Shown piece by piece: positions 19,478 through 60,914 of a DNA stretch of 64,000 nucleotides. A model generated the notes under the pieces. The model did not search any database and was not told where the DNA came from. It saw only the letters and a list, made by a program, of their open reading frames with translations. The DNA comes from a virus (taxonomy: Duplodnaviria > Heunggongvirae > Uroviricota > Caudoviricetes). The stretch lies in IMG/VR virus record IMGVR_UViG_3300037400_003880, one strand, 5' to 3'. Every line of letters starts with the position of its first letter. The first letter of the stretch is position 1. Position numbers and translations under genes: made by a program.

Positions 19478-19482
19478 TATAG

Positions 19483-21331: not shown

Positions 21332-21360
21332 TTGACTTTATGATTAAAAAATGATATAAT
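21332..21360 (+). promoter_or_regulatory. conserved promoter (TTGACTTT..ATGATATAAT)
   Basis: Member of the promoter family of about 24 copies. Confidence 0.55.
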
Positions 21361-21389
21361 ATAATTAACAAAATAAAGGAGGAATGAAT

Positions 21390-21944: not shown

Positions 21945-22170
21945 ACTTGAAACTGGTTGGTAGCTTTTTGTTTTTATTCTAGTTATGCTTGGATTACTTT
22001 TTGCAATAATTGTCTTTCAACTTTGGCTGTGGAAAATTATTTTTGTTGCGGCATTTGGTTTACCACAGCTAACTTTCTGGCAAATGGTTGCGCTAAATAT
22101 TTTTTGCGATATATTATGCTGTGGAAATAATAGATGGCTTTCAATTAAATTTAAAGGGGAGGAGTTATAA
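21934..22170 (+). CDS. small membrane protein (78 aa, 1 TAG)
   Basis: GGAGG ribosome-binding site. Two hydrophobic helices. Overlaps the ThyX ATG. Confidence 0.45.
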
Positions 22171-42600: not shown

Positions 42601-43503
42601 ATGAATAAGGCTTCTTTTTATATGGCAGTTGGTCTGCCGGGGTCTGGCAAGTCTTACCTGTTTGAATCTGTAATCAAGAAGTTGTCTCCTGACTGTGTAT
42701 ACGTATCTTCTGATGCAATTCGGGAGGAGGTATTCGGTGACGTAAACGATCAGGAGCATAATGAGCAGGTGTTTGAGCTGATGAAGCGCCGCACCCTTGA
42801 TTCTCTGAAGGCAGGAGTGTCGGTTTATTATGACGCAACCAATGTGTCCGCAAAGCATCGTATCGGTTTCCTTAAGGGACTTTCCCATATCAAGGACATC
42901 GCACGGGTATGTGTGTTGAACACTCCGCCCGTTGAGGTTGTAAAGTTCCGTAACGCCCATCGTGAGCGCAAGGTTCCGGAATACGTTATTGACAGAATGC
43001 TGAAGTCTTTCAATGTGCCTGACTATTCTGAGGGATGGGATGTAATTCTTCGTTATGGTTCTGATGAAGACCATAATGCAATTGAGGAAATTACTTGCTC
43101 TTCTGCAAAGCTGTCTCATGATAATCCTCATCACTCTGCAACTGTTGGAGTTCATATGTTTAATGCAGCAAACTATGCTGAAAAGGAATTGAAGGCAAAT
43201 TGCGAAGTCATCGAAGCAGCCTGCTATCATGATATTGGTAAGCCTATTTGTAAAGTATTTCAGGATGCAAAGGGCGAGCCGTCTGATGTAGCTCATTACT
43301 ACAACCATGAGAATGTCGGAGCATACCTATATCTTTCTCATGCAAAGAATGACGGGGTATCCCTGTATATTGCTAACCTGATTGCTCACCATATGGATTT
43401 TTTCAAGGGTGAAAAGTATGTTGAGAAGATTCATAATCGTTTTGGAGAGGGATTCTTTCGGGATCTCCAGCTCCTTCATAAGGCTGATGTAAATGCACAC
43501 TAA
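42601..43503 (+). CDS. polynucleotide-kinase-like P-loop kinase fused to an HD phosphohydrolase domain (RNA/tRNA repair candidate)
   Basis: Walker A GLPGSGKS and DxT-like YYDATN. C-terminal HD motifs H..HDIGK..H. Confidence 0.7.
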   Translation: MNKASFYMAVGLPGSGKSYLFESVIKKLSPDCVYVSSDAIREEVFGDVNDQEHNEQVFELMKRRTLDSLKAGVSVYYDATNVSAKHRIGFLKGLSHIKDIARVCVLNTPPVEVVKFRNAHRERKVPEYVIDRMLKSFNVPDYSEGWDVILRYGSDEDHNAIEEITCSSAKLSHDNPHHSATVGVHMFNAANYAEKELKANCEVIEAACYHDIGKPICKVFQDAKGEPSDVAHYYNHENVGAYLYLSHAKNDGVSLYIANLIAHHMDFFKGEKYVEKIHNRFGEGFFRDLQLLHKADVNAH

Positions 43504-48115: not shown

Positions 48116-48190
48116 TGGGGTATCGCCAAGTGGTAAGGCACAGGACTTTGACTCCTGCATCCGTGGGTTCAAATCCCTCTACCCCAACCA
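48116..48190 (+). tRNA. tRNA-Gln (anticodon TTG), CCA encoded
   Basis: U1:A72 acceptor TGGGGTA/TACCCCA. D-arm GCCAAGTGGTAAGGC. Anticodon loop CTTTGAC. T-loop TTCAAAT. Closely resembles E. coli tRNA-Gln. Confidence 0.75.
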
Positions 48191-48193
48191 TAT

Positions 48194-48271
48194 GCCGGTG
48201 AAGCTTAAGTGGTATAAGCACTCCCCTTATAAGAGAGAGATAGATGGGTTCGAGTCCCTCGACCGGCACCA
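48194..48271 (+). tRNA. tRNA, identity uncertain (anticodon loop CTTATAA reads TAT; Ile2-like?), non-canonical T-stem
   Basis: Acceptor GCCGGTG/GACCGGC. D-arm GCTT..AAGC. T-loop TTCGAGT. CCA encoded. The anticodon stem has one mismatch. Confidence 0.45.
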
Positions 48272-48280
48272 ATAAATAAT

Positions 48281-48309
48281 TTGACTTTTTTATGGAAATA
48301 TGGTATAAT
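48281..48309 (+). promoter_or_regulatory. conserved promoter
   Basis: TTGACTTTTTT..ATGGTATAAT. Confidence 0.55.
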
Positions 48310-48330
48310 ATTTATAGAGAGGTGAGAGAA

Positions 48331-48510
48331 ATGACTGTAAAAGATTTAAGCGTAAAGATGGAAGCCTTAATTGAAAATGGTTAGGCTGACATTGAAGTCA
48401 TGGTATATGATATGCATGAGGGGTGGAAGCCTTATGTATATGAGGATACTTCTTTCCATGGCGGAAAGATTTATCTTGGACTTCCTGAAGTGAAAGTAAC
48501 AAGTGAATAA
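48331..48510 (+). CDS. small hypothetical protein (59 aa, 1 in-frame TAG)
   Basis: GAGGTGAGAG ribosome-binding site, then ATG at 48331. A TAG at codon 18 is read through to TAA 48508-10. Confidence 0.4.
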
Positions 48511-48511
48511 T

Positions 48512-48540
48512 TTGACTTTCTAAGAAAAATATGCTATAAT
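48512..48540 (+). promoter_or_regulatory. conserved promoter
   Basis: TTGACTTTCTA..ATGCTATAAT. Confidence 0.55.
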
Positions 48541-48546
48541 ATTTAT

Positions 48547-48614
48547 AGACAGGTCAGCAATTCAAATTTTAAGGACTATGCTTTTAACATAAAATTCTTA
48601 AACAATCTGTCTTG
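48547..48614 (+). ncRNA. Y RNA-like stem-closed element (short, stem-loop only)
   Basis: 5' AGACAGGTCAGCAA pairs with 3' CTGTCTTG. Family motif present. Confidence 0.4.
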
Positions 48615-48654
48615 AAATGGTTCGGCATCACTCCATTCAAAAGCGGTGTCAGAT

Positions 48655-48728
48655 GCGCCTATCGTCTAAAGGTAGGACACTACACTTTTAATGTAGGTAT
48701 TCGGGTTCGAGTCCCGGTGGGCGCACCA
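48655..48728 (+). tRNA. tRNA-Lys (TTT), CCA encoded
   Basis: Acceptor GCGCCTA/TGGGCGC. Anticodon stem CTACA/TGTAG with loop CTTTTAA. T-loop TTCGAGT. Confidence 0.75.
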
Positions 48729-48732
48729 GCAT

Positions 48733-48835
48733 ACGGCAGTTCAGCAATCCACTTTTTATTGCAGCCAAAAATTTTTGCAAGCGTATGGTTCGACTCCTGC
48801 GTTAATTCGGAGACGGTCTCCAAAGGTCTGTCGTG
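48733..48835 (+). ncRNA. Y RNA-like stem-closed element with T-loop-like GGTTCGACTCC and internal GGAGACGGTCTCC hairpin
   Basis: 5' ACGGCAGTTCAGCAATCC ... 3' CTGTCGTG. Family motif TCAGCAA present. Confidence 0.4.
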
Positions 48836-48841
48836 TATTAT

Positions 48842-48932
48842 GTCGAGATGGGTGAGTTGGCTTAAACCAGCGGTTTGCTAAACCGCCGACCGGCACAAAG
48901 CCGGTCCGAGGGTTCGAATCCCTCTCTCGACG
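48842..48932 (+). tRNA. tRNA-Ser (GCT), class II
   Basis: Acceptor GTCGAGA/TCTCGAC. Anticodon stem GCGGT/ACCGC with loop TTGCTAA. Long variable arm GACCGGCACAAAGCCGGTC. T-loop TTCGAAT. Confidence 0.7.
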
Positions 48933-48963
48933 CTTTCAAATTATTGAGAAAGAGGTGAGTCCA

Positions 48964-49194
48964 TTGGGCATAAAAGATTCCAACTGCTGGAAATATTTTC
49001 TGAGTAAAGCTCCATATGATGTTCTTGTAACAATTATGAAGAATACAGGAATTTGTCCAGTTGCCGCTTTGATGGGAGAATTTGACATTAACATATGTCT
49101 TCTTCATCATCCTCATAGAATATTTAAGACTCTTGAGGAAGAAGCTGTTTGTTATGAGTGCCTTCAAAAATGGCTAAACGAAAAAACTCAATGA
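48964..49194 (+). CDS. small Cys-rich protein inside the tRNA array (start uncertain: GTG 48955 or TTG 48964)
   Basis: Track ORF 48955-49194. AGAGGTGA ribosome-binding site. CxxC...CYEC. Confidence 0.35.
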   Translation: MGIKDSNCWKYFLSKAPYDVLVTIMKNTGICPVAALMGEFDINICLLHHPHRIFKTLEEEAVCYECLQKWLNEKTQ

Positions 49195-49195
49195 T

Positions 49196-49224
49196 TTGAC
49201 TTTTGAAGAAAAAAGTGATATAAT
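49196..49224 (+). promoter_or_regulatory. conserved promoter driving the suppressor tRNA pair
   Basis: TTGACTTTTGA..AGTGATATAAT. Confidence 0.55.
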
Positions 49225-49292
49225 TATTATAGTAAAGGCACAAACAGCAAGAATATCGTCCAACCTTAGAACGATACGTGTCTTGGCGAGAT

Positions 49293-49368
49293 TTCGGTTT
49301 CGCCAAGTGGGTAAGGCAGCGGGCTCTAACCCCGCCATTCGGGGGTTCAAATCCCTCAACCGAAACCA
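49293..49368 (+). tRNA. amber suppressor tRNA (anticodon CTA) on a tRNA-Gln-like scaffold, CCA encoded
   Basis: TTCGGTT TC GCCAAGTGGGTAAGGC A GCGGG CTCTAAC CCCGC CATTC GGGGGTTCAAATCCCTC AACCGAA A CCA. U1:A72. The D-arm and T-loop are nearly identical to the tRNA-Gln at 48116. Confidence 0.8.
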
Positions 49369-49439
49369 TTCTCCTTCGCCAAGCGGTAAGGCAGCGGGCT
49401 CTAACCCCGTCAGCCAAGGTTCGAATCCTTGAGGAGAAG
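49369..49439 (+). tRNA. second amber suppressor tRNA (anticodon CTA), directly abutting the first; no CCA
   Basis: TTCTCCT TC GCCAAGCGGTAAGGC A GCGGG CTCTAAC CCCGT .. CAAGGTTCGAATCCTTG AGGAGAA G. The anticodon stem and loop are the same as copy 1. Confidence 0.75.
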
Positions 49440-49443
49440 TGTA

Positions 49444-49530
49444 AAGACGGTTCAGCAAAACACAAATGGTTAAAGAAAAATTCTGCAAAAATTTTTTGAA
49501 ACGGTTCAAATCCGTAAATTTCCCGTCTTG
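49444..49530 (+). ncRNA. Y RNA-like element with closing stem AAGACGG/CCGTCTT and internal T-arm-like ACGGTTCAAATCCGT
   Basis: Family 5' motif GACGGTTCAGCAAAAC. 7 bp terminal stem. Confidence 0.45.
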
Positions 49531-49535
49531 TTAAT

Positions 49536-49564
49536 TTGACTTTTTTCTTAGAGTATGATATAAT
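49536..49564 (+). promoter_or_regulatory. conserved promoter
   Basis: TTGACTTTTTT..ATGATATAAT. Confidence 0.55.
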
Positions 49565-49613
49565 AAATATGTACTTAAAAGTACGGAGCGAAATTCTCCT
49601 TAAACTACAAAAT

Positions 49614-49687
49614 GCGGCTATGGTGTAGTGGTAACATTTCTGCCTTCCAAGCAGACGTGGCGGGTTCGAGTCCCGTTAGCCGCTCCA
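49614..49687 (+). tRNA. tRNA-Gly (TCC), CCA encoded
   Basis: Acceptor GCGGCTA/TAGCCGC. Anticodon stem TCTGC/GCAGA with loop CTTCCAA. T-loop TTCGAGT. Confidence 0.75.
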
Positions 49688-49730
49688 GCTGTTGGTAAAC
49701 AGGTTGGCTCAATTGCCCGAAGCTTCCAAA

Positions 49731-49971
49731 AGACAGGTCAGCAATCCTTATAGAAATGTAATATTTAGAATAGGATTGAAAACTAACGGTATTAGTTTTG
49801 CTCGGGACGACTACTATGAAAGGAATGAGGTAAAACTCTCAACCGAGCTTATAGCGGCTGCCGGCTTTCGTGGCAGGAACCTTCGCCAGTCGTTACTACA
49901 CAGCGACATTAAAGAAGTGTGAGTATTGATGCAGCCTCCCTTTACGGGATTTAGATTTAGTACCTGTCTTG
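49731..49971 (+). ncRNA. Y RNA-like element, long form (about 241 nt)
   Basis: 5' AGACAGGTCAGCAATCC ... 3' TACCTGTCTTG. Highly structured interior. Confidence 0.4.
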
Positions 49972-50460
49972 AAAATTGAATGGTCGGCATTCGCTTGTGC
50001 CTTCCCCATAAGTTAAATTCAAGCCTCTACTGTGCTTATATCCCGTCTATTATGTTCGTCCGGAAGTGCGGCACATTAAATAACGCGGCGAAAAGAACAT
50101 TAGAACTCTCGTATATAGACTCAGGATAAGTGGAGCGAGACTAAATAAGTACCCGTTTGGCACGAGTTGTGCTAAATCCGAATCGTTCCTTATACTGCCA
50201 TATGAGGAGCGTCTGTGGCAGCAGTAATGAGACAGAAAGCTCTCAGAGTTGTACAGCTCAAAGCTTTCTCGCAATCCGCCGGTGTGAATGGGCGGTACCT
50301 TGTGAGTTAGTAGATGGACATAACTCTCCGTCTGGTTTGGCGTGAACGGACTGCTCAAAGGGTTCAACTCCCTTTCAATAGGATGTGCCTATTGCTACGG
50401 TTTAGGAGTTGGCACCAAGTACAAGCCTCCACGCGGCGGTGCTGGATTTGAACTAATTGT
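49972..50460 (+). ncRNA. unclassified structured non-coding region (about 490 nt) with T-loop-like AAGGGTTCAACTCCCTT and several GTCTG/CAGAC long-range complements
   Basis: No credible ORF; the track ORFs here overlap on both strands and are low-complexity. Lies between a Y-like element and a conserved promoter. No tmRNA, RNase P or group I core motifs were recognised. Confidence 0.3.
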
Positions 50461-50472
50461 ACAAAAGATTAT

Positions 50473-50501
50473 TTGACTTTTTATAAAAATTATGATATAA
50501 T
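50473..50501 (+). promoter_or_regulatory. conserved promoter
   Basis: TTGACTTTTTA..ATGATATAAT. Confidence 0.55.
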
Positions 50502-50522
50502 ATTTATAGAAAGTAAAGAGAA

Positions 50523-50598
50523 CGCGGGTTAGAGCAGTTGGTAGCTCGTCAGGTTCATTACCTGAAGGTCAGGGGTTCGAGTCCCTTACCCGCAACCA
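50523..50598 (+). tRNA. tRNA-Met/fMet-like (CAT), C1·A72 mismatch, CCA encoded
   Basis: Acceptor CGCGGGT/ACCCGCA. D-arm GAGC..GCTC. Anticodon stem TCAGG/CCTGA with loop TTCATTA. Confidence 0.6.
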
Positions 50599-50601
50599 AA
50601 T

Positions 50602-50677
50602 CGCCCCATCGTCTAAATGGTAAGGACGCGTCCCTTTCAAGGAGGTAATGCGAGTTCGATTCTCGCTGGGGTGACCA
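50602..50677 (+). tRNA. tRNA-Glu (TTC), CCA encoded
   Basis: Glu-type D-arm GTCTAAATGGTAAGGAC. Anticodon loop CTTTCAA. T-arm GCGAGTTCGATTCTCGC. Confidence 0.65.
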
Positions 50678-50685
50678 GCACGTTA

Positions 50686-50762
50686 CGACAAATCAGCAAA
50701 ACACTTCTTTCTTCAGAAATTAGAGAGATAAAGTCGTGCATTATCTTTAATAGTTTGTCGTG
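50686..50762 (+). ncRNA. Y RNA-like short element
   Basis: 5' CGACAAATCAGCAAAACAC ... 3' TTTGTCGTG. Confidence 0.4.
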
Positions 50763-50769
50763 AAAAATG

Positions 50770-50838
50770 GCGCGGTAGTGTAAAGGTAGCATAGTAGAGT
50801 CATTATCTACTGATTCAAGTTCGAGTCTTGACTGCGCA
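50770..50838 (+). tRNA. short tRNA with CAT anticodon (Met or Ile-lysidine type), reduced D-arm
   Basis: Acceptor GCGCGGT/ACTGCGC. Anticodon stem GTAGA/TCTAC with loop GTCATTA. T-arm CAAGTTCGAGTCTTG. Confidence 0.45.
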
Positions 50839-50842
50839 ATAA

Positions 50843-50966
50843 AAGATGTGTCAGCAAAACACTTAGTTATGGCATTTTAAGCCTCAGAATGTTGGTTCGA
50901 GTCCAACCCTCTCTTTGGAGAGGTAGCTTAATTGGCAGAGCGGAGAAAAACGAAAAACACATCTTG
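50843..50966 (+). ncRNA. Y RNA-like element with permuted tRNA-like module
   Basis: 9 bp closing stem AAGATGTGT/ACACATCTT. Interior: T-arm GTTGGTTCGAGTCCAAC, acceptor 3' strand CCTCTCT, TT, acceptor 5' strand GGAGAGG, TA, D-arm GCTTAATTGGCAGAGC. Confidence 0.5.
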
Positions 50967-51190
50967 TTTTAATGCCCGAGTACCCCAATCGGCAGAGGGA
51001 GCGGACTTTGATGTATTCTATCACAAAAGTGATACTACTGAAAAGTAGAGAGTGCCCCAAGAGAAATCTTGGAAGTAGAAGATGGCTAAAACGGCGAAGG
51101 CGAATACAGAACGCCGTGCAAGGATTTTAGGCAGACGGAAAGTTTTAGATGGATTTTTGCGTGATACCACTTATAAGTGAGGTGATAGAA

Positions 51191-51697
51191 ATGCAGAAGT
51201 ACACTAAAGAGTGGTTAGAAGAGCTTTGTGCAAACAGCTTTTCTTACGCAGAGGTTTTAAGAAAAGCCGGTCGTAAGCAAGGCGGTGGAACACAAGCGAC
51301 TCTAAAAAAGAAGATTGAAGAATTTAATATTGATGTCTCTCATTTTACGGGGCAAGGGTGGAATGGTCATTCTAATACCGTTGTTGATGTAAATAGAGAG
51401 AAATATTCAATAGAAGAAATCTTCATTAAGAACAGCCCAGTTACACAAAAAGTTATGAGAGGATATGTTGAAAGGCACAATCTTCTTGAGTACAAATGTG
51501 TTAATTGTGGTTGTGATGGAAATTGGCAAGGCGGCACAATCTCATTAGAGATTGACCATATTGATGGAGATAATTCTAATAATGAATTATCAAATCTCCG
51601 TTATTTATGTCCCAATTGTCACGCTCTTACTGAAACTTATCGAGGAAAAAACAAAGCCCTGAAATCTATGTGTAGAGACTGTACACCATCAGCCTAA
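51191..51697 (+). CDS. HNH homing endonuclease
   Basis: GGTGATAGAA ribosome-binding site, then ATG at 51191. HNH motif EIDHIDGDNSNNELSNLRYLCPNCHALTE. A 33-codon ORF upstream (51082-51183) lies in a different frame. Confidence 0.75.
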   Translation: MQKYTKEWLEELCANSFSYAEVLRKAGRKQGGGTQATLKKKIEEFNIDVSHFTGQGWNGHSNTVVDVNREKYSIEEIFIKNSPVTQKVMRGYVERHNLLEYKCVNCGCDGNWQGGTISLEIDHIDGDNSNNELSNLRYLCPNCHALTETYRGKNKALKSMCRDCTPSA

Positions 51698-51713
51698 ATC
51701 GAAAGATATGGTT

Positions 51714-51878
51714 AAGACACAGTCCAGACTACAACACAGCAATGTGGCTATGGTGACATAGTGTAGTACGAAAATCCGTATAGTGTGGGTTCGAATCCCA
51801 TTTCGGGCACCATTCTTATTGGGCTTATATGGCTTGGCTGTCACCATATGGCAGCGGCTCAATAGGAAACCAAGCCTT
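51714..51878 (+). ncRNA. Y RNA-like/tRNA-like structured element
   Basis: AAGACACAG...ACACAGCAATG motif. Internal stem CTATGGTGACA/TGTCACCATAG. T-arm-like GTGGGTTCGAATCCCAT. Confidence 0.35.
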
Positions 51879-51950
51879 AAGACGGTTCAGCAACTCTATA
51901 TAATAGAACTGTGTATTTGTGAACGCTGTTAATTTATATTGTCCGTCTTG
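51879..51950 (+). ncRNA. Y RNA-like short element
   Basis: 5' AAGACGGTTCAGCAACTC ... 3' GTCCGTCTTG. Confidence 0.45.
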
Positions 51951-51957
51951 TTTAAAT

Positions 51958-52032
51958 CGAGGACGTGGTGTAATTGGTAACACACCACATTTGGGATGTG
52001 GGGTAGCGGTTCGAGTCCGACGTCTTCGACCA
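51958..52032 (+). tRNA. tRNA-Pro (TGG), CCA encoded; weak T-stem
   Basis: Anticodon stem CCACA/TGTGG with loop TTTGGGA. T-loop TTCGAGT. Acceptor (C)GAGGAC/GTCTTCG with G·U pairs. Confidence 0.55.
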
Positions 52033-52129
52033 GCCCATAAGGGCAATCTTGATTTTTTCATCATTATTCATAATAATACCTCCAGAGTTATTATGAAAGT
52101 GTCGCATTATTGCGGAATGCGACACAAAT

Positions 52130-52206
52130 CGGGAATTAGCCCAATTGGCAGAGGCATACGTTTAAGGTGCGTATTAGTGAGGGTTCGAGTCCCTTGTTCC
52201 CGACCA
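52130..52206 (+). tRNA. class-I tRNA with Leu-type anticodon (loop TTTAAGG/TTAAGGT; TAA or AAG), A73, CCA encoded
   Basis: Acceptor CGGGAAT/GTTCCCG. D-arm GCCCAATTGGCAGAGGC. Anticodon stem (A)TACGT/GCGTA(T). T-arm GAGGGTTCGAGTCCCTT. Preceded by a 10 bp hairpin GTGTCGCATT..AATGCGACAC. Confidence 0.5.
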
Positions 52207-52393
52207 TCAGGTAAGCAGAGCTACCCGTCATTCGGTGACAAAGCTGCTCGGAGCGTTAACACGGATTTTGGATTAGTAAACTACTACCGGCGAGAGGTCG
52301 CTCCTCTCGATATGTAGCTTGCGGCAAACGCTCCGTTAATAAATAAGAAGGCGAAGTAACTAGTCCACCATTAAAAGAAAGGAGAGAATAGTC

Positions 52394-52897
52394 GTGGATA
52401 TGAAAAAGTTTCATCGTGGTAATGGAGACATTGTAACTCATGATGAAATGGTCAAGATTGCAGCTGATTATATCAGTGCTGATCCATCTCAGGAGTATGA
52501 AATTACTGTAGGGACTGATAGCCAAAACCATTCACAAACAAAAATGGTTGAAGTTATTGCTCTTCACAGAATTGGACACGGCGGCATCTTCTTCTATAGG
52601 GTTGATTATGTTCGTAAGATTAAGTCACTAAAGGAGAAGATTGTAGAAGAAACCTCGCGTTCTCTTGAGAATGCATCAGGGTTACTTGACGATGTTCAAC
52701 TTCAGTTGCTTGAAGAAGGCATTGATATTGATGACTTGAATATTCATTTCATTATTCATTGTGATATTGGTCATGAAGGAAAAACTCAGGCTTTAATTAA
52801 GGAAATTGTAAGTTGGGTTCATTCCGCAGGTTATGAATGTCAAATCAAGCCAGACAGCTATGCGGCTTCTGGTATTGCAAATAAGATTTCTAAATGA
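52394..52897 (+). CDS. hypothetical protein inside the tRNA array (H..GHGG / DIGHEG motifs; RNase-H-like fold?)
   Basis: AAAGGAGAG ribosome-binding site. Track ORF. Preceded by a structured leader with 7-8 bp helices. Confidence 0.5.
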   Translation: MDMKKFHRGNGDIVTHDEMVKIAADYISADPSQEYEITVGTDSQNHSQTKMVEVIALHRIGHGGIFFYRVDYVRKIKSLKEKIVEETSRSLENASGLLDDVQLQLLEEGIDIDDLNIHFIIHCDIGHEGKTQALIKEIVSWVHSAGYECQIKPDSYAASGIANKISK

Positions 52898-52916
52898 GGT
52901 GTTAATCACCTCAGAT

Positions 52917-52994
52917 GCCGTGGTAGTCCAACTGGCAGGAGACGTTTGCCTTAGGAGCAAAACAGTATGGGTTCGAATCCCTTCTACGGCACCA
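52917..52994 (+). tRNA. class-I tRNA with anticodon TAG (Leu CUA/CUG codons), A73, CCA encoded
   Basis: Acceptor GCCGTGG/CTACGGC. Anticodon stem TTTGC/GCAAA with loop CTTAGGA. T-loop TTCGAAT. Confidence 0.55.
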
Positions 52995-52996
52995 TT

Positions 52997-53090
52997 AAGA
53001 CAGCGCAGCAAATTTGAATAGCTCCATTTATATACACATAAAATGTATTTTAACAAAAGTGTCTCTGCTATAATGACACGAGCTGTCTTG
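52997..53090 (+). ncRNA. Y RNA-like element
   Basis: 5' AAGACAGCGCAGCAAATT ... 3' GAGCTGTCTTG. Confidence 0.4.
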
Positions 53091-53110
53091 TAATTTAATT
53101 CAAACTTATT

Positions 53111-53230
53111 AAGACTCTCCAGCAATCTGAGAAGGATTTCTTTCCAGTGTAGCCAAGTGGGTTAAGGCAGCGGCATCAAAGCCGTGATTCTCCGGTTCGA
53201 ATCCGGACTCCGGACAAAAAAAGAGTCTTG
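53111..53230 (+). ncRNA. Y RNA-like element enclosing a pseudo-tRNA (anticodon CAA, degenerate acceptor)
   Basis: 8 bp closing stem AAGACTCT/AGAGTCTT. The interior TCCAGTG TA GCCAAGTGGGTTAAGGC A GCGGC ATCAAAG GCCGT .. TCCGGTTCGAATCCGGA CTCCGGA has the Gln/Sup-like D-arm. Confidence 0.45.
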
Positions 53231-53236
53231 AGTTAT

Positions 53237-53309
53237 GGTGTAAGTGGTGAAATGGCTATCACGGCGGTTTGTGGCACCGCAGTTAAGAGTTCGATTCTCT
53301 TCTTATGCC
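53237..53309 (+). tRNA. tRNA-His (GTG) with encoded G-1:C73
   Basis: 8 bp acceptor GGTGTAAG/CTTATGCC. D-stem GTGA/TCAC. Anticodon stem GCGGT/ACCGC with loop TTGTGGC. T-arm AAGAGTTCGATTCTCTT. Confidence 0.7.
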
Positions 53310-53330
53310 CTTTATTTATCAATTAAAATA

Positions 53331-53359
53331 TTGACTTTTTGAGAAAAATATGGTATAAT
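53331..53359 (+). promoter_or_regulatory. conserved promoter
   Basis: TTGACTTTTTG..ATGGTATAAT. Confidence 0.55.
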
Positions 53360-53382
53360 ATTTATAGAAAGTGAGGGAAAAT

Positions 53383-53622
53383 ATGAAACAATTTATTATT
53401 TTAGAGGTATGCAATGAGGATTATTACATTTTCGATACTGTTAATGAAGCTATTCTCTATGCAATAGGGAAGGTTTGTAAATGGGTAAAAGATGAGGTGT
53501 TGGGAATGACAAAAGAAAGCGCAGGAGAGATTATCCTTGAAATGATGGATAGTAAGACTGACCATTCTTTTTATGTCGATGACGTTTTTTACTGTTATCC
53601 CGCACAATATATTAAGGAATAA
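53383..53622 (+). CDS. hypothetical protein
   Basis: AGTGAGGGAAAA ribosome-binding site, then ATG at 53383. Confidence 0.45.
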   Translation: MKQFIILEVCNEDYYIFDTVNEAILYAIGKVCKWVKDEVLGMTKESAGEIILEMMDSKTDHSFYVDDVFYCYPAQYIKE

Positions 53623-53639
53623 GTAAAGGAGAGAGTTAA

Positions 53640-53768
53640 ATGAGTAAAGAGCTGAGAATCCAGATGATGGAAAATCGAATTGTCTTGCTTATGTCTCGCG
53701 GCGAGACTATGAATGCAAGAATTGTAGCGAAGCTAAAGCGACAGCTTCGCAAGCTCAAGGGCGAGTAA
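53640..53768 (+). CDS. small basic protein (42 aa)
   Basis: AAGGAGAGAG ribosome-binding site. MSKELRIQMMENR... Below the track cutoff. Confidence 0.35.
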   Translation: MSKELRIQMMENRIVLLMSRGETMNARIVAKLKRQLRKLKGE

Positions 53769-53780
53769 TCGCCCACTTAT

Positions 53781-53854
53781 GGGGATGTGGTGCAAGTGGC
53801 AGACGCGGCTGTCTCAAAAACAGTTTTTTGTGGGTTCGAATCCCACCATCCCCA
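53781..53854 (+). tRNA. class-I tRNA with anticodon CAA (Leu UUG codon), A73
   Basis: Acceptor GGGGATG/CATCCCC. Anticodon stem GCTGT/ACAGT with loop CTCAAAA. T-arm GTGGGTTCGAATCCCAC. Confidence 0.55.
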
Positions 53855-53942
53855 CTGGCGCGCAGGTTTGATGCAATGCGACATATACAGAAATCCGTGT
53901 ACTATAGAGTATTCCTGCACAATCTATAGCGGTATTTAATTT

Positions 53943-54089
53943 AAGACACGCACAGCAAAGTTTTTTATAAATGGACAGTAAATCCGTTGGGGAAGTCCCT
54001 TCGTAGGTGCAAATCCTATCCTCGCCCACCAATATGGGTGAGTAGCCAAGTAGACAAAGGCGGCGGAACCATATGTAAAAAGTGTCTTG
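53943..54089 (+). ncRNA. Y RNA-like element with permuted tRNA-like module
   Basis: Closing stem AAGACAC/GTGTCTT. Interior: T-arm-like GTAGGTGCAAATCCTAT, acceptor 3' strand CCTCGCC plus CACCA, ATAT, acceptor 5' strand GGGTGAG, TA, D-arm GCCAAGTAGACAAAGGC. Confidence 0.45.
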
Positions 54090-54093
54090 AGAT

Positions 54094-54179
54094 GCGGAGA
54101 TGCCCGAGTGGTTGATGAGGACGGTCTGCAAAACCGTTGGCTTGCGCCCGCGTGGGTTCGAATCCCACTCTCCGCTCCA
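54094..54179 (+). tRNA. class-II (long variable arm) tRNA with anticodon GCA (Cys codons) and U73, CCA encoded
   Basis: Acceptor GCGGAGA/TCTCCGC. Tyr/Ser-like D-arm CCCGAGTGGTTGATGAGG. Anticodon stem ACGGT/ACCGT with loop CTGCAAA. 14 nt variable arm TGGCTTGCGCCCGC. T-arm GTGGGTTCGAATCCCAC. Confidence 0.55.
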
Positions 54180-54182
54180 AAT

Positions 54183-54256
54183 GCAGAATTAGTTTAATGG
54201 TAGAATTGGTGCTTCCCATGCACTTGACGCGGGTTCGATTCCCGTATTCTGCTCCA
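54183..54256 (+). tRNA. tRNA-Gly (CCC), CCA encoded
   Basis: Acceptor GCAGAAT/ATTCTGC. Anticodon loop TTCCCAT. T-arm GCGGGTTCGATTCCCGT. Confidence 0.7.
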
Positions 54257-54258
54257 GT

Positions 54259-54385
54259 AAGGTAGGTCAGCAAGAAGAACTAAAATTTTGTTCCAACTCT
54301 TATGTTGATGGTTCGAGTCCATCCTCACTCGCAAGTGTGAGTAGTTCAACTGGCAGAACAAAGGGTAAAAATTTAACCTATCTTG
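54259..54385 (+). ncRNA. Y RNA-like element with permuted tRNA-like module
   Basis: Closing stem GGTAGGT/ACCTATC with TCAGCAAG. Interior: T-arm GATGGTTCGAGTCCATC, acceptor 3' strand CTCACTC, loop GCAAGT, acceptor 5' strand GTGAGTA, D-arm GTTCAACTGGCAGAAC. Confidence 0.5.
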
Positions 54386-54417
54386 ATTATATCTGAGTTT
54401 AATTCTCTTCGGAGTAT

Positions 54418-54508
54418 CAAAGGCACAAAACAGCGGCGTACTTCTAAGTTCGATTCTTAACTCCTCCACCAATATGGGGGAGTAGCCCTTGGAGGGCTAT
54501 GTGTCTTG
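54418..54508 (+). ncRNA. Y RNA-like/tandem tRNA-like fragment element
   Basis: T-arm-like CTAAGTTCGATTCTTAA. CTCCTCC ACCA ATAT GGGGGAG TA GCCC. Ends ATGTGTCTTG. Confidence 0.35.
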
Positions 54509-54512
54509 ATTT

Positions 54513-54585
54513 GTCTCATTAGTTCAACAGGATAAAACAGTTTCCTCCTAAGAAACAGTTACAGGTTCGAGTCCTGTATGGGGCA
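54513..54585 (+). tRNA. tRNA-Arg (CCT)
   Basis: Acceptor GTCTCAT/ATGGGGC with two G·U pairs. Anticodon stem GTTTC/GAAAC with loop CTCCTAA. T-arm ACAGGTTCGAGTCCTGT. Confidence 0.55.
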
Positions 54586-54642
54586 CTGGGCGTTACTGCC
54601 CAAGTTATTTTCGACGTAAGTCTTGCGGCATGACTATAAACT

Positions 54643-54750
54643 GCCGTTGATGATGCGGAGGTGCGCAAGTGGTCATAAGCGCATAGCCTTGAAAGCTATT
54701 GTGTCAGCTTAGTATCTGACCCGTGGGTTCGAATCCCACTCTCCGCGCCA
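54643..54750 (+). tRNA. tRNA-Ser (TGA), class II, CCA encoded
   Basis: Acceptor GCGGAGG/TCTCCGC. Anticodon stem ATAGC/GCTAT with loop CTTGAAA. 21 nt variable arm. T-arm GTGGGTTCGAATCCCAC. Confidence 0.7.
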
Positions 54751-54894
54751 GACATGCTTTTGTAATTTCCATGTAATGAACAAGAAATTATTACCTTAGT
54801 GGTGGCTGAGCTATCTTTCAGTAAGTTTTAATAAATAATAAAATTAAATTTAAAATTTATTGAAGGGTAGCTTGGCTTAATACAGGTTATTTAT

Positions 54895-54923
54895 TTGACT
54901 TTCTTAGGAAAGTATGCTATAAT
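54895..54923 (+). promoter_or_regulatory. conserved promoter
   Basis: TTGACTTTCTT..ATGCTATAAT. Confidence 0.55.
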
Positions 54924-54989
54924 ATTATTATAGTGAGAAGATAAAACAGCAAACAAAAAGATTTATCTTGTGAAAAGGAGAAATGTGTA

Positions 54990-56459
54990 ATGAGTAATTT
55001 TGCAAACGCTTTTGGTAGAATGGCAGACATGACTATGACCGAGAATGGTGGACGCGCTTTCAGTACTACCGGTTCAGCTTTGCTTGACCTGTTCGCTAAT
55101 ATCGGTGGCATGAGAAATCGAGACACTTCTGATGTTGTTTCTGCATGGCAGGCAGCTCGGAAGGAAGATAAGGAGCTTGCGGATAATCTGATCCTCTATG
55201 CCCGTGATATTCGTAACACTGGTCTCGGTGAGCGTAAGATTGGTCGTGCCCTCCTGAAGGCTCTCGGTGATGCTGATCCTCAGAAGGTAATCCGTAACTT
55301 TGAAACCATTGTTGCGGCAGGTCGTTGGGATGACTTGTTCATCTTTGTGGGTAACCCTGCAATTGAGAACAAGATGTGGGATTATGTTGAAGAGCAGTTC
55401 CGTGCTGATGTAAAGGGTGTAAAGCTTAACCAGCCTATCTCTTTGCTCGGTAAGTGGATGCCTTCCATTAACACCAGCTCTCAGGAGACTCGTAAGCTCG
55501 CACGTCGTGCCTGCGCGCACTTGGGTCTGACTGAGCGTACTTATCGTAAGAGCCTTAGCGCGCTTCGTAAGCATATCAACATTGTTGAGCGTCTTATGAG
55601 CGCCGGCGAGTGGGATAAGATTGACTTCGAGTCTGTACCTTCTGTAGCTATGTCTCGTTATATCAATACTTATAACAAGCGTTGTCAGGAGCGTTTTGCT
55701 GAATACAAGGCTTCCCTCGTAAAGGGTGAAGCTAAGGTTAATGCAGCAACTTTGTATCCTTATGACATTGTTATGAAGGCATTGAATAGCGGATACTACG
55801 GGAAGATGACTCTTGATGCTGTTGACGAAGCACAATGGAAGGCTCTGCCTAACTATGTGTCTGGTGAGAATGAGGTCGTTGTAATGGCGGACGTGTCTGG
55901 TTCTATGAGCTGTGACATGAATCGTCCTATGGCAACTTCTATCGGTCTTGCCACCTATTTCGCACAGAGGAACAAGGGTGCATATCACAATATGTATCTT
56001 ACCTTTACCTCTCAGCCTGCTTTCATTCATCTCAAGGATGAGTGGAGTTTGGCAGACTGCCTTAACTATGTGAAGAGTCATGGTGTAGGTTATAGCACTA
56101 ATCTGGATGCGGCTTTCGCTGCAATCTATGAGGTTGCTGTTCGCACCAATGAAGCTCCAAAGGCACTGGTTGTAATCTCTGACATGGAGATTGATAGCTG
56201 GTACTCTGGTAACTTCTGCGACTCTATCGCAAGTAAGTGGGAGAGAAAGTATGCAGCCGTTGGCTTGAAGGCTCCTAAGCTTATCCTTTGGAACGTAGAA
56301 TCTCGTGGTGGACGTGTGCTCGCACAGCAGTCTGATCGTGTAGGTTTCGTTTCTGGATATGGCGTTGGTCCTTTCGCAAACTTGACCTCTCTTATCGACA
56401 AGAGTGCTTACGAGGCAATGAAGGAAATTCTTTCTAAGCCTGCATTCCAGTGGAAGTAA
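54990..56459 (+). CDS. Ro60/TROVE-like protein with C-terminal vWA domain (Rsr-like, DUF2828-type; tentative)
   Basis: AAAAGGAGAAA ribosome-binding site. An N-terminal alpha-helical region of about 290 aa is followed by a vWA MIDAS motif VVVMADVSGSMS and LVVISDMEID. Lies directly downstream of the Y RNA-like/tRNA array. Confidence 0.55.
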   Translation: MSNFANAFGRMADMTMTENGGRAFSTTGSALLDLFANIGGMRNRDTSDVVSAWQAARKEDKELADNLILYARDIRNTGLGERKIGRALLKALGDADPQKVIRNFETIVAAGRWDDLFIFVGNPAIENKMWDYVEEQFRADVKGVKLNQPISLLGKWMPSINTSSQETRKLARRACAHLGLTERTYRKSLSALRKHINIVERLMSAGEWDKIDFESVPSVAMSRYINTYNKRCQERFAEYKASLVKGEAKVNAATLYPYDIVMKALNSGYYGKMTLDAVDEAQWKALPNYVSGENEVVVMADVSGSMSCDMNRPMATSIGLATYFAQRNKGAYHNMYLTFTSQPAFIHLKDEWSLADCLNYVKSHGVGYSTNLDAAFAAIYEVAVRTNEAPKALVVISDMEIDSWYSGNFCDSIASKWERKYAAVGLKAPKLILWNVESRGGRVLAQQSDRVGFVSGYGVGPFANLTSLIDKSAYEAMKEILSKPAFQWK

Positions 56460-56486: not shown

Positions 56487-56492
56487 TAAATA

Positions 56493-56722
56493 TGGCGGTT
56501 CAGCAACTTACTTTATGAGAAATTGGAGTTAAATTTATTTTAACAGGCTTTTGGCTGCCGAAGTCAAATGTGACCCATCGAGGACATGGGCAAAAATCCT
56601 AAAAGGTGCCGTCATGATATACGATTCTTCCAGCAATAGTGATGCTATGTTTAGGAAAATTTTACAATTATGCCTTGATTGAAGAGCAGAATCGTGCGGC
56701 ATTATAGTTTCTATAGTGCCGC
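56493..56722 (+). ncRNA. Y RNA-like element, long and divergent
   Basis: 5' TGGCGGTTCAGCAACTT ... 3' GTGCCGCTTTA. No ORF. Confidence 0.3.
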
Positions 56723-56731
56723 TTTATTTAT

Positions 56732-56760
56732 TTGACTTTTTTATAAAAATATGATATAAT
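56732..56760 (+). promoter_or_regulatory. conserved promoter
   Basis: TTGACTTTTTT..ATGATATAAT. Confidence 0.55.
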
Positions 56761-56787: not shown

Positions 56788-56907
56788 ATGCATGAACTGC
56801 TTTCTTTACTTATGTTGTTAGTTCTTGTGCCGGCGGCAATAATCTTTATCGAGATTATTATTGAGCGTATTGAAGATGCTAAAGAAGGGGAGGATGAAGA
56901 TATGTGA
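56788..56907 (+). CDS. small membrane peptide (39 aa)
   Basis: AAAGGAGAG ribosome-binding site, then ATG at 56788. Hydrophobic with an acidic tail. Confidence 0.3.
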   Translation: MHELLSLLMLLVLVPAAIIFIEIIIERIEDAKEGEDEDM

Positions 56908-58586
56908 GTGTCGCTATTAGAATAACATTATCAAATGGAGAAGAAGCGTGGCTAAGAACAGAAGAAGTTGAAGTGGAAGAAATCCCTGACGCATTTGGTC
57001 AGCCAATGTCTTTAGATGTTCAATTTTTAGCTTAGACAGGTTCTTGGATAGAAAATCTTCTTAAAATCAATGAGTCGGTAAAAGTTTCTTAGCTTTTGTT
57101 AATAGTTGATAATGATAAGAAGATACAGATTGATTTTAGACGCTATGCATTAGGAGTTATGATGTGTCATTCAAGCAATTTGAATGGTACATCTGATATA
57201 TCCATTATTGGAGCTGGCGTTGCAACTGAATTTAAGGAAGGAGAGATTGTCTGTGTGAGTAAGAAGTTTTCTACAAAAATTGTAAGTGTAATATTCCCAG
57301 ATGAAAGGGGCAGATACACAGGGAAAACCTATAACTATTTTCTGCATGAGGAGCTACCACTCCCGAATCTTTCTGACAGGATTCAAATTAAATCAATCAA
57401 AGGTTTTGGGGATGTTGTGCCGTAGAAGCCCAGTTATAATGACAGAAGTGTTCTTGTAGTTGGCGCCTTTAATGTTACAGCAGATACTGTAGAAGAGTAT
57501 GCTGATAAAATTTTAACCTATGGCGATTGTCTGAAAACAATCTATAGCTATGAAATAACAAGTTCCTTAGTTTCAGATGTTGTACATCAGGAAAAGGAAG
57601 CTACTCTTTCTATTCAAGTAGACGATCATGAGAAACTTTGGCAAGACCTCAATAATGTAGTGGCTAATGCGCCTTATGGTTTCAGATTATCTGATATTAA
57701 TAATGAGCAAGTAAAGCTTGACTGTGAAGTTCTCCGCCCATTCTCTCTTTATACAAAGAGTGATTCGGGTGACTGGGTTCTTCGAGCTGAGCTTAAGCCA
57801 TATGGAAAGGAAAACGAAGTGAGAAACAAATATGTTGATGAATGGGATAGCCTTGTAAGTGCAGGAGCAATTCCGACTTACAACACAGTTGAAGAAATGG
57901 ATATTCCGAAGGAAGAAATGGTATATTTTGAGAAGAAAAAGGAGAGAAAATCAATGAAGAATATTTTTGGTAACATTATGAAGAACGTAAAGTTTGGTCA
58001 GCTCAATACTGACAAGGTCGCATATTCTATGCAGGGTATGGCTTTCAAGTCCAGTGACGGTGATTATCTCGTATACAAGAAGGATCAGCCGGCGGTTAAC
58101 GTAAATGAGTTTGTCATTGAGATGCCGCTGTTTGTGATGCCGGTCCCGCTGAAGGACCTTTAGGTTGGTGATATTATTTGCAGGGGTGAAGATTTTGTTC
58201 TTGTAGATAGTATCGGTGAGACTTATATTACCGCAATCAACACTGACAAGAGTGAGATTGTAACAATTGTTCCACAGGTAAATATGTTCGGCTTCTCCTT
58301 CTATAGTAAGGTAGTAGCTCCGACTAATCTGTTCGGCGAGGCAACTCAGGATAATCCGTTTGGTAATATTCTGCCGCTGCTAATGATGGATAATGAAGAT
58401 AACGATTCTTCTGCATTTGGTATGATGATGCTCATGAGCCAGATGAATGGCGGTAAGGGTATGAATATGGATTTCACTAAAATGGCTCCGTTTTTTCTGC
58501 TTGGCAATCAAAATGGAAAGGATGACACCTTCAAGATGATGGCTCTTATGTCTATGATGAATAGCGGCTCTGAAAAGAAGGAGTAA
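56904..58586 (+). CDS. hypothetical protein (about 560 aa, 5 in-frame TAG)
   Basis: GGGGAGG ribosome-binding site, then GTG at 56904. One frame joins track ORFs 57096-57425, 57660-58163 and 58284-58586 across TAGs. Met-rich C-terminus. Confidence 0.5.
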
Positions 58587-59978: not shown

Positions 59979-60914
59979 ATGAAGCATTATGTAGATATTG
60001 AGCGTTTTAAGGTAAAGTACGACGAGTGCATGCGCGCCGGTGACGAGATTGTCGTACAAGAGAAGATTGATGGAGCCAATGCATCTTTTACTTACGATCC
60101 CGCACAGGATAAGGTTCTGGCTTTTTCTCGTAAGAATGAGCTGAATGAGGCAAATAATCTCCGTGGTTTCTGGGATTGGACTCAGCGTCTTGACAAGAAG
60201 GGTGTCGCTCATATGACTCAGAATGGTCGCTATGTAATTTTCGGCGAGTGGCTTGTAAAGCATACTGTTCGTTATCCTGAGCATGAGTATAATCATTTCT
60301 GGATGTTCGATGTATGGGATACGCAGGACGAGAAGTGGCTTCACTATGATGATGTTCGTGCAATTCATGCGGGACTTTTGAGTGTAGCCCAGCTCACGCA
60401 GGAGGTTATTAACTTCGTCCCTGTATTCTATGACGGTCCGTTCATTTCTTGGGATCACCTTTACCAGATGGTTGGACGTACTGACGTAAATGCGGAGCCT
60501 TGCGGCGAGGGCATCGTAATTAAGAACCAGAACACTATTGACATTCCGGAGTGGCGCCTGCCTACCTATGTCAAGATTGTATCGGAGAAGTTCTCTGAGG
60601 TTCACGTTGGTCATGCTAAGAAGCTCATTGATCCTGCTGTTCTTGCAGCTCGTGAGGCAGAGCGTCAGATGGTTGCGACTGTAGTTACCGAGCGCCGTGT
60701 AGCTAAAATATTGGAAAAGTTTGTAGATAATGGTATACTTCCAGAAGACTGGGACGAAAAAAATATGAAGGATGTTGCTAAGAATCTCCCTAAAGCAGTT
60801 TATGAGGATTGTATAAAAGAAGAACCAGATATTGTAAAAGCGTGTGAAGACTTTGGAAAAATATGTGGTAAGATTTCTATGGATTATGTTCGTCAATTTC
60901 TTTCTGCTCGATAA
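59979..60914 (+). CDS. ATP-dependent RNA ligase (Rnl2-like nucleotidyltransferase)
   Basis: Motif I EKIDGAN (adenylated lysine), motif IV EGIVIKNQ, motif V KIVSEKF. Size about 311 aa. GAGAGGAGAA ribosome-binding site. Confidence 0.7.
   Translation: MKHYVDIERFKVKYDECMRAGDEIVVQEKIDGANASFTYDPAQDKVLAFSRKNELNEANNLRGFWDWTQRLDKKGVAHMTQNGRYVIFGEWLVKHTVRYPEHEYNHFWMFDVWDTQDEKWLHYDDVRAIHAGLLSVAQLTQEVINFVPVFYDGPFISWDHLYQMVGRTDVNAEPCGEGIVIKNQNTIDIPEWRLPTYVKIVSEKFSEVHVGHAKKLIDPAVLAAREAERQMVATVVTERRVAKILEKFVDNGILPEDWDEKNMKDVAKNLPKAVYEDCIKEEPDIVKACEDFGKICGKISMDYVRQFLSAR

Follow-up and report, generated by a model that had tools for sequence, protein, structure and literature searches.

Introduction

The Ro60 (Rsr) proteins of Deinococcus radiodurans, Salmonella Typhimurium and Mycobacterium smegmatis (PMC4201824) join a helical-repeat domain to a vWA domain with a MIDAS (metal ion-dependent adhesion site), and in bacterial Ro60 systems they are accompanied by one to four RNAs per genome, of the types YrlA, YrlB and Yrn1, whose ends pair in a helix with a conserved motif in the 5' strand. 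The presumed Ro60-binding site of these Y RNAs reads GNCGAAN0-1G (Chen et al. 2014, PMC4201824), and the Ro60/Y RNA complex tethers or blocks exoribonucleases such as PNPase. A phage system is known as well: phiRo60 of Thermus phage phiLo, a recognisable TROVE protein with CGAA-motif RNA (Yrl1 and Yrl2; PDB 9KOP, 9L5Y), binds Yrl RNAs and attenuates host PNPase, as demonstrated by experiment (PMC12135203). Here, we analyse a 64,000-nucleotide stretch of DNA from a virus of the class Caudoviricetes (IMG/VR record IMGVR_UViG_3300037400_003880), hereafter the window, in which a plus-strand gene at 54990..56459 codes for a Ro60-like protein of another sequence family, and in which at least 12 RNAs with a common terminal helix, which we call the handle, lie among tRNA genes or after the Ro-like gene. 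The results speak for a divergent particle of the Ro/Y-RNA type, with autoregulation as a probable feature; it would work like the Ro60/Y-RNA system, yet stands outside the canonical family as defined by the TROVE profile, the GNCGAA motif and a Rfam-level YrlA score.

Several relatives of the protein have already attracted attention. Namely, bas63_0130 (gp130) of Escherichia phage JohannRWettstein (Bas63), the Felixounavirus ortholog of the window protein (BLASTP: 33% identity, E 2e-69, 95% coverage), was reported in the PhageMaP preprint to be structurally Ro60-like, to counter the Ppl defence and to be transferable to T7, and its authors guessed that some of the neighbouring Bas63 tRNA genes are Y RNAs, without identifying the RNAs (PMC11482910). 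Two further members of the family, at 32-34% identity (tblastn), are gp53 of mycobacteriophage LeBron, which bears the annotation 'Ro-like RNA binding protein' and, when overexpressed, is toxic to M. smegmatis (PMC13148394), and CKA15_055 of the P100-type Listeria phage CKA15, tied to Rsr by HHpred; abundant non-coding transcripts upstream of the latter were suggested to be Y RNAs, which were again not identified (PMC12282133). A tblastn search places the family in 709 phage records, 705 of them with at least 80% coverage and none reaching 60% identity, the top-listed genera being Escherichia and Salmonella (Felix O1-like), Mycobacterium, Vibrio, Listeria, Staphylococcus, Campylobacter, Enterococcus, Bacillus and Aeromonas; no near-identical phage was found in the phage collection. 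The annotations are mixed, ranging from 'hypothetical', 'vWFA protein' and 'DUF2828 family protein' to 'RNA-binding protein' and 'Ro-like RNA binding protein'. The protein alone is, in other words, a further member of a family already called Ro-like, and of modest interest by itself. What is new are coordinates and a mutable motif for its candidate RNA partners, left undefined by the Bas63 gp130 and CKA15 studies. In the literature that we searched, neither the handle motif nor defined RNA partners are described for the DUF2828 family, with the proviso that the 22 phages of Chen et al. (2014) could include one of the DUF2828 type.

A Ro60-like protein of the DUF2828 family

The gene sits at the very position that an earlier, sequence-only reading of this DNA had given; it opens with ATG, closes with TAA and specifies 489 amino acids. 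Thousands of full-length homologs mark it as a real gene and not a chance open reading frame (ORF): approximately 7,900 relatives were scored in a 90%-clustered protein collection, in which the family profile matched 7,573 cluster representatives at E<=0.001. That reading had also predicted a helical N-terminal region of about 290 residues followed by a vWA domain with the motif DVSGSMS, and had suggested profile searches and an AlphaFold comparison with Ro60 as ways of checking it. The predicted architecture held up well. In an AlphaFold2 model based on an alignment of 47 homologous sequences with 51-87% identity (pLDDT, the predicted local distance difference test, 93.3; predicted template modelling score 0.91), residues 1 to ~290 are nearly all alpha-helical and residues ~296-489 form an alpha/beta vWA fold, while the complete MIDAS set (D301, S303, S305, T370 and D398) is invariant in the 47 homologs, DVSGSMS comprising residues 301-307 (codons at 55890-55910). 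The helical domain also has many invariant arginines and lysines (R42, R72, R75, R82, R112, K155, R186, K187, R193).

The profile searches place the protein firmly in its family. Pfam DUF2828 (PF11443) scores 123.4 bits (gathering cutoff 29; E 1.4e-35) on its N-terminal part, and matches all 47 aligned homologs too; DUF7788 (PF25043) scores 77.3 bits (gathering cutoff 27.1; E 1.3e-21) on residues 297-458, and PHROG 850 ('RNA-binding protein') covers residues 1-487 of 489 at E 1.8e-117. The N-terminal alpha-helical repeat domain (residues 1-~292, DUF2828) thus corresponds to 54990..55865 and the C-terminal vWA domain (DUF7788) to 55869..56456. Generic vWA profiles in Pfam match only weakly. The likeness to Ro60 resides in the fold: when the model was compared with the PDB using Foldseek, ranks 1-13 were all Ro60 structures, aligned over the full length at E 6e-10 to 1.5e-6 and including those of Thermus phage phiLo (9KOP, E 6e-10), human, Xenopus and D. 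radiodurans, and from rank 14 down there were only isolated vWA domains at E>1e-3. The model reproduces the two-domain arrangement of Ro60, with a helical-repeat domain packed on the vWA domain, that is, the architecture of the bacterial proteins as judged by structure. Overall, a Ro60-like fold and membership of the Ro-like phage family appear very probable.

Handle RNAs and their conservation

By handle we mean a helix of 8-11 bp in which the ends of an RNA pair with each other, with (U)AAGAnnnnn as its 5' strand and nnnnnUCUUG as its 3' strand, together with an unpaired CAGCAA directly 3' of the 5' strand. It was first seen upon folding YrlA-like regions, whose ends pair in a 9-10 bp helix. 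We turned it into a descriptor (a perfect 9-bp helix, 0-2 nt, CAGCAA, 40-180 nt, the 3' strand) and scanned the window together with 89 homologous loci, 1.14 Mb in all. There were 110 matches on the strand of the gene versus 9 on the opposite one, with approximately 6 per strand expected from block shuffles; they comprise 98 unique sequences with 65 distinct stems, and the inner positions of the helix show all four types of Watson-Crick pair. Fifteen elements with a permuted tRNA-like module, from 13 contigs and the window, were then aligned in register as a seed. RNAalifold independently predicted four helices in it, namely the terminal one, the T-arm, the hairpin and the D-arm; 21 of the 25 pairs show compensatory changes, and all three helices of the permuted module have them. 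With the resulting covariance model, R1, a search of 1.23 Mb gave 154 matches at E<=0.01. All of them lie on the strand of the gene and within its 6-kb flanks, and they come from approximately 56-59 of the 90 DUF2828 loci. Matches in distant phages outside the seed include those in the Felix O1-like phage allfine (E 2.5e-13), in LeBron (E 1.1e-8) and in the homologous locus L004 (E 1.5e-10). In the R1 alignment, 93.8% of cells are paired, as opposed to 40-49% when the partners are slid, and the covariation score is 0.40 as opposed to 0.05-0.09 for the slid controls, an alignment fitted to the model being the basis of both values; over the 123 distinct sequences, 88-99% of cells are paired in each helix.

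In the window itself, R1 has 18 matches at E<=1, all on the plus strand and all between 48.1 and 56.6 kb, and every RNA named below lies on that strand. Most of them are interleaved in the tRNA array. Two have the YrlA-like permuted tRNA module: the RNA at 50842..50966, the best example in the window (100 bits, E 5.7e-20), and the one at 54258..54385 (98.3 bits, E 1.4e-19), where T-arm, closed acceptor-like hairpin and D-arm can be recognised; the RNA at 53942..54089 (40.2 bits, E 1.2e-6) has a tRNA-like module as well. Three RNAs are short, namely those at 48545..48614 (AGACAGGU/AUCUGUCU, E 0.005), 50684..50762 (ACGACAAAU/GUUUGUCGU, E 8.8e-5) and 51878..51950 (E 4.8e-4). The RNA at 48732..48835, of the ACGGCAG/CUGUCGU class, has a T-arm and a small hairpin, and a T-arm is also present in a probable handle RNA at 49443..49530, with CAGCAA and a 7-bp helix AAGACGG/CCGUCUU. 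A degenerate copy at 54420..54507 (AAGGCACA/UGUGUCUU) has the motif CAGCGG together with T-arm-like and hairpin modules, and the RNA at 52996..53090 is without a tRNA-like module. In the remaining member of the array, 53110..53230, the handle surrounds a non-permuted tRNA-like body, which ARAGORN calls as 'tRNA-???' at 53143-53215 with a two-base anticodon and which is Rfam's weakest tRNA match but one (41.4 bits). Its acceptor stem is either lengthened by the handle helix or supplanted by it, so that this is probably not a decoding tRNA. Two further RNAs follow the Ro-like gene: the one at 56491..56616 (AUGGCGGUU/GCCGUCAU + CAGCAA, R1 E 0.16) begins 32 nt past the stop codon and is kept in L004:3439-3564 with one-sided, pair-preserving changes, and that at 56620..56696 (ACGAUUCU/AGAAUCGU + CAGCAA) is kept in L004:3568-3647. 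The interiors are, in short, modular, being permuted tRNA-like, non-permuted tRNA-like, composed of a T-arm by itself or with a small hairpin, or devoid of any tRNA-like part.

Linkage of the handle to the Ro-like gene

The gene begins 240 nt past the final tRNA of an array at 48116..54750 on the same strand, so that its position right after the tRNA array, which the sequence-only reading had pointed out, is confirmed. A predicted sigma-70-type promoter at 54895..54923 (TTGACT-17-TATAAT with the TG extension of an extended -10, 11/12 match) is followed by a handle-only hairpin at 54937..54970 (R1 E 0.021), a Shine-Dalgarno sequence AAGGAG at 54975..54980, 9 nt ahead of the ATG, and the gene, and then by the two handle RNAs just described and a strong intrinsic terminator-like hairpin (12 bp and a T-run) at 56696..56722. 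With promoter, leader handle, gene, two handle RNAs and terminator in sequence, this looks like a single transcription unit. The leader hairpin is a perfect 8-bp helix, AAGAUAAA/UUUAUCUU, around A-CAGCAA-ACAAAAAG, in the order AAGAUAAA-A-CAGCAA-ACAAAAAG-AUUUAUCUUG; it starts approximately 7 nt past the expected transcript start and ends 5 nt ahead of the Shine-Dalgarno sequence.

Such a leader copy is by no means peculiar to the window. Counting a leader handle if it ends at most 150 nt upstream of the start codon, we found one in 49 of the 90 loci versus 13 of 1800 random opposite-strand windows (0.7%); the stems of these leader handles covary, and the Shine-Dalgarno sequence follows some 5-40 nt further on. 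More generally, many handles are found close to the Ro-like gene, at 17-100 nt upstream or 30-220 nt downstream. Directly after LeBron gp53 comes a handle RNA that has a YrlA-like module (approximately 40,270-40,391 of HM152763), and here, in contrast to the window, there is no tRNA within 11 kb. The gp130 gene of Bas63 directly adjoins a tRNA array, and a handle RNA with a permuted tRNA module lies 1 kb downstream of it (L090:5963-6088, approximately 82,781-82,906 of MZ501086). Bas63 differs from the window in that the gene precedes the array and in that no leader handle was detected with the criteria used; moreover, its candidate RNA sits in an unannotated gap and not among the annotated tRNAs that its authors suspected of being Y RNAs. 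In the Listeria phages, the gene follows the tRNA array, with RNA ligases (one of the RtcB type) downstream, a weaker handle candidate only (L002:7821-7927) and a ROOL-like RNA upstream. The handle is thus kept in phages of Escherichia (allfine, Bas63) and Mycobacterium (LeBron) and in uncultured gut and rumen phages, with the one weaker candidate in Listeria, and the DUF2828 gene is the sole feature common to these handle loci. The 120 protein matches in Escherichia phages are all explained by 120 DNA matches of the Felixounavirus type. Judging from this distribution along the sequences, it is rather probable that the protein partners with handle RNAs and with its own leader.

Could something else read the handle, be it a tRNA-processing enzyme, an RNase of the host or a different phage protein, so that it would mark sites of processing or stability in the RNAs and mRNAs of this region and its linkage to the Ro-like gene would be positional only? 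The elements do sit in polycistronic tRNA arrays that need processing, and genes for RNaseH-like proteins, HNH endonucleases and RNA ligases recur nearby in close relatives. Hairpins at the 5' end often stabilise mRNAs. That said, the stable RNAs of the T4 and T5 clusters (rnaC and rnaD of T4; RNAI-IV and RNA1-3 of T5), likewise small, partly tRNA-like and located beside phage tRNA genes, provide an instructive comparison. These clusters depend on the same E. coli processing machinery as those of Felixounaviruses such as Bas63, and yet we found neither a descriptor match nor an R1 match in them; their stable RNAs are without CAGCAA and do not belong to the same family, and the DUF2828 gene is absent from the T4 and T5 regions examined. 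The other phage neighbours fare no better as readers, given that among the 56 RNA-bearing loci an RNaseH-like gene (PF04308) is present in just 16, an HNH gene in 10 and an RNA ligase gene in 8, and we rejected them as the true RNA partner on these grounds. With the motif spread across phages of Escherichia, Mycobacterium, possibly Listeria and uncultured hosts, and with the DUF2828 gene alone in common, we consider a different reader of the handle quite improbable. Stems for an RNase III-type enzyme were also considered as an explanation and set aside, the helices being only 8-11 bp long, as were permuted tRNA genes awaiting circularisation or ligation by the nearby RNA ligases, since the RNAs have no anticodon arm and their ends are locked in the handle helix.

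Relation to canonical Ro60 and YrlA

The sequence-only reading took the protein for a Ro60/TROVE-like one and its neighbours for putative Y RNAs, and overall this interpretation is supported with qualifications. As for the protein, the fold and DUF2828 bear the likeness out, whereas Pfam TROVE and a sequence match to Ro60 do not. As for the RNAs, the permuted module, the strand and the proximity agree with those of Y RNAs, whereas the YrlA score and the GNCGAA motif do not. In particular, candidate RNAs lie within a few kilobases of the gene on the same strand, several per locus, much as YrlA RNAs are encoded within ~4 kb of the Ro60 gene; their ends pair in a helix with a conserved motif in the 5' strand, and some of them have the permuted tRNA-like module. 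YrlA (RF02553) is the only non-tRNA Rfam family that matches the array meaningfully, if below threshold: at gathering thresholds, Rfam finds only tRNAs in the window. YrlA matches the window at 50863-50973 (35.9 bits, the whole model) and at 54299-54363 (33.1 bits), the region right after LeBron gp53 at 39.8 bits and four metagenomic relatives at 31.6-36.5 bits, and it does not detect the Bas63 element at E<=0.01. The YrlA-type permuted module is present in a subset of the RNAs only, and the Rfam alignment bypasses their true terminal helix. Further differences are that a phage tRNA array is interspersed with the handle RNAs, that a genome has up to ~14 of them, as against one to four in bacterial Ro60 systems, and that the leader of the gene contains a handle too.

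A number of observations weigh against a Ro/Y-RNA-type particle, and they are best considered together. On the side of the protein, Pfam TROVE (PF05731) gives no match to the window protein at E<=1 and none to the 47 homologs at E<=10, vWA_Ro60 matches just 2 of the 47, at E 0.14, and neither phmmer nor a profile search found any solved Ro60 chain in the PDB. Sequence searches of PDB chains gave marginal vWA matches and nothing more, NCBIfam gave nothing, profile A1 did not recover 9KOP from the PDB at E<=10, and the identity to Ro60 structures in the structural alignments is 12-18%. On the side of the RNAs, the YrlA scores of 32-40 bits are about half of the gathering score of 69, and the Ro-binding motif GNCGAAN0-1G is absent, the 5' strands reading (U)AAGAnnnnn and then an invariant CAGCAA. 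About one third of the homologous loci are without an R1 match within 6 kb. Covariation of the terminal helix is partly circular for sequences that were selected by the descriptor, and a few R1 matches, in L002, L006, L069 and L081, are artefacts of tandem tRNAs, to which a model with tRNA-like arms is prone. Finally, we infer the pairing of protein and handle from genomic linkage alone, and Bas63 gp130 by itself, plasmid-borne or inserted in T7, restored T7 plaquing on Ppl cells without Bas63 RNAs (PMC11482910).

Chen et al. (2014, PMC4201824) have warned that tandem tRNAs can imitate YrlA. In the window, this artefact is real at 54152-54208, where the T-arm of a tRNA-Cys and the D-arm of a tRNA-Gly are combined. 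For the main elements we rejected this explanation, because the handle encloses them, their hairpins are closed and none of them overlaps a called tRNA.

These results contradict a canonical system of the kind known from mycobacteriophage ET08 or Thermus phage phiLo, in which a canonical Ro60/Rsr ortholog is joined by equally canonical YrlA RNAs. Ro60 is, to be sure, the best structural match, and YrlA is the sole Rfam family besides tRNA to match these RNAs, yet the absence of TROVE from all 47 members, the low identity to Ro60, the sub-threshold YrlA scores, a terminal helix of which Rfam makes no use and the missing GNCGAA all speak for a different sequence family, and we regard a canonical system as very improbable indeed.

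The rescue of T7 by gp130 raises another possibility, namely that the protein is a counter-defence or host-manipulating factor acting through protein contacts of its vWA/MIDAS domain, with no dedicated RNA, and that the handle RNAs are a separate trait of the tRNA region. It follows from the rescue that the anti-Ppl activity, at least, is independent of phage RNAs. The toxicity of LeBron gp53 on its own points in the same direction, vWA/MIDAS domains are classic protein-binding modules, and in a fold search with the N-domain alone Ro proteins were favoured weakly and without clean separation. Against this stand the match to Ro60 across both domains, the many invariant basic residues in the N-domain, the leader handle in 49 of the 90 loci and the handle RNAs that directly adjoin the gene also in loci without tRNAs nearby, such as that of LeBron. 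Moreover, an RNA-independent activity against Ppl is compatible with RNA-dependent functions, and host RNAs could substitute for those of the phage. On balance, we find a purely protein-contact role unlikely.

A possible mechanism

Returning to a divergent Ro/Y-RNA-type particle, one can sketch how it might operate. The protein would bind the conserved handle, much as Ro60 binds Y RNAs, and with interiors as varied as these, one protein may carry a modular RNA repertoire. The copy in the leader would serve as an autoregulatory site. Namely, with a handle in its own mRNA only a few bases ahead of the ribosome-binding site, free protein probably represses its own translation, and the analogy with the operators of classical RNA-binding proteins suggests autogenous translational control of this kind. 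By a similar analogy, with Y RNAs and PNPase, the variable modules may confer effector specificity. The role of the particle is the least certain step: the behaviour of Ro60 and Y RNAs, the nearby RNA-repair genes and the anti-Ppl activity of Bas63 gp130 suggest a part in RNA metabolism during phage-host conflict, where the particle might protect or repair tRNAs and other RNAs, or serve as a decoy for host factors that recognise tRNA.

Put more broadly, and as a tentative proposal that we take seriously without being convinced of it, DUF2828 proteins and CAGCAA-handle RNAs may constitute a widespread, undescribed phage Ro/Y-RNA particle, present in Felix O1-like phages, mycobacteriophages of cluster L, many uncultured gut and rumen phages and possibly P100-like Listeria phages. 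In such a particle, one ring-type protein would load up to ~14 modular RNAs per genome by way of the handle that they share, tRNA mimics included, and throttle its own synthesis through the mimic in its leader, while the RNA modules would act as decoys or tethers against host immunity that targets RNA or tRNA. If the RNA partners are confirmed, Ro/Y-type ribonucleoproteins would extend to a large, sequence-divergent clade of phages, there would be an explanation for some of the puzzling gaps and spurious small ORFs of phage tRNA clusters, and Bas63 and LeBron would offer a tractable model for tRNA-mimicking RNAs in phage-host conflict.

Genomic neighbourhood and additional observations

The array at 48116..54750 (+) comprises 19-20 tRNA genes according to ARAGORN and Rfam. 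Inside it lies an RNaseH_like (PF04308) gene at 52394..52897 (+), which recurs in 16 of the 90 loci, and an HNH endonuclease gene is inserted among the tRNAs and handle RNAs at 51149-51697; in the corresponding array of the relatives L008 and L009 there are several GIY-YIG and HNH homing-endonuclease genes. Downstream, at 59979..60914 (+), is an RNA ligase gene (PF09414) that is conserved in close relatives. A gene at 42601..43503 (+) joins a P-loop kinase (AAA_33) to an HD phosphohydrolase, the domain pair of RNA end-healing enzymes, so that its putative function is read from its domains. The loci of relatives contain a T4 Rnl1-type ligase and Thg1. The region is flanked by genes of the nicotinamide adenine dinucleotide salvage type, for an isochorismatase-family protein, possibly a nicotinamidase (62161-62676), and a nicotinate phosphoribosyltransferase (62688-63905).

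Other RNAs and small ORFs were noted in the arrays of relatives. In L008 and L009, a phage transfer-messenger RNA at 6068-6406 (79.4 bits, above gathering) lies approximately 600 nt upstream of the Ro-like gene, beside handle RNAs. In L002 (Listeria phage LMLPA3), a full-length match to the ROOL RNA at 6470-7021 (89 bits versus a gathering score of 99.1, E 1e-16) is located inside the tRNA array, approximately 1 kb upstream of the Listeria homolog, and may correspond to one of the heavily transcribed non-coding regions that were reported for the related phage CKA15. In a gap of the Bas63 tRNA array (L090, 5930-6204), two small minus-strand coding sequences, bas63_0137 and bas63_0138, are annotated as 'hypothetical protein'; the former overlies the plus-strand handle RNA at 5963-6088 and is probably spurious.

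Between the final tRNA and the promoter of the Ro-like gene, there is an AT-rich imperfect hairpin at 54802-54879, for which Rfam gives microRNA-family matches at chance level only; it is possibly a terminator at the end of the array or a processing site. Just past the terminator of the unit, a second promoter at 56732-56760 has the same 11/12 hexamers and TG extension as that of the Ro-like gene, and presumably drives the downstream gene at 56898-58586. The latter has four TAGs and corresponds to a single 523-aa gene in L004. Two adjacent tRNA genes in the array, at 49293-49368 and 49369-49439, have the anticodon CTA, that of amber suppressors. When TAG is read as sense, many plus-strand ORFs fuse, one of them into 1035 codons with 17 in-frame TAGs; fused ORFs are found at 6508-9615, 9557-11224, 11218-14031, 14310-16682, 26343-27491 and 56898-58586, and the number of codons that fall in ORFs 100 or more codons long goes up from 18,240 to 25,783. 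Together, the CTA tRNAs and the fusion of ORFs point to a recoding of the TAG stop codon in part of the genes of this phage. The Ro-like gene itself is free of in-frame TAGs, and its stop codon, as noted above, is TAA.

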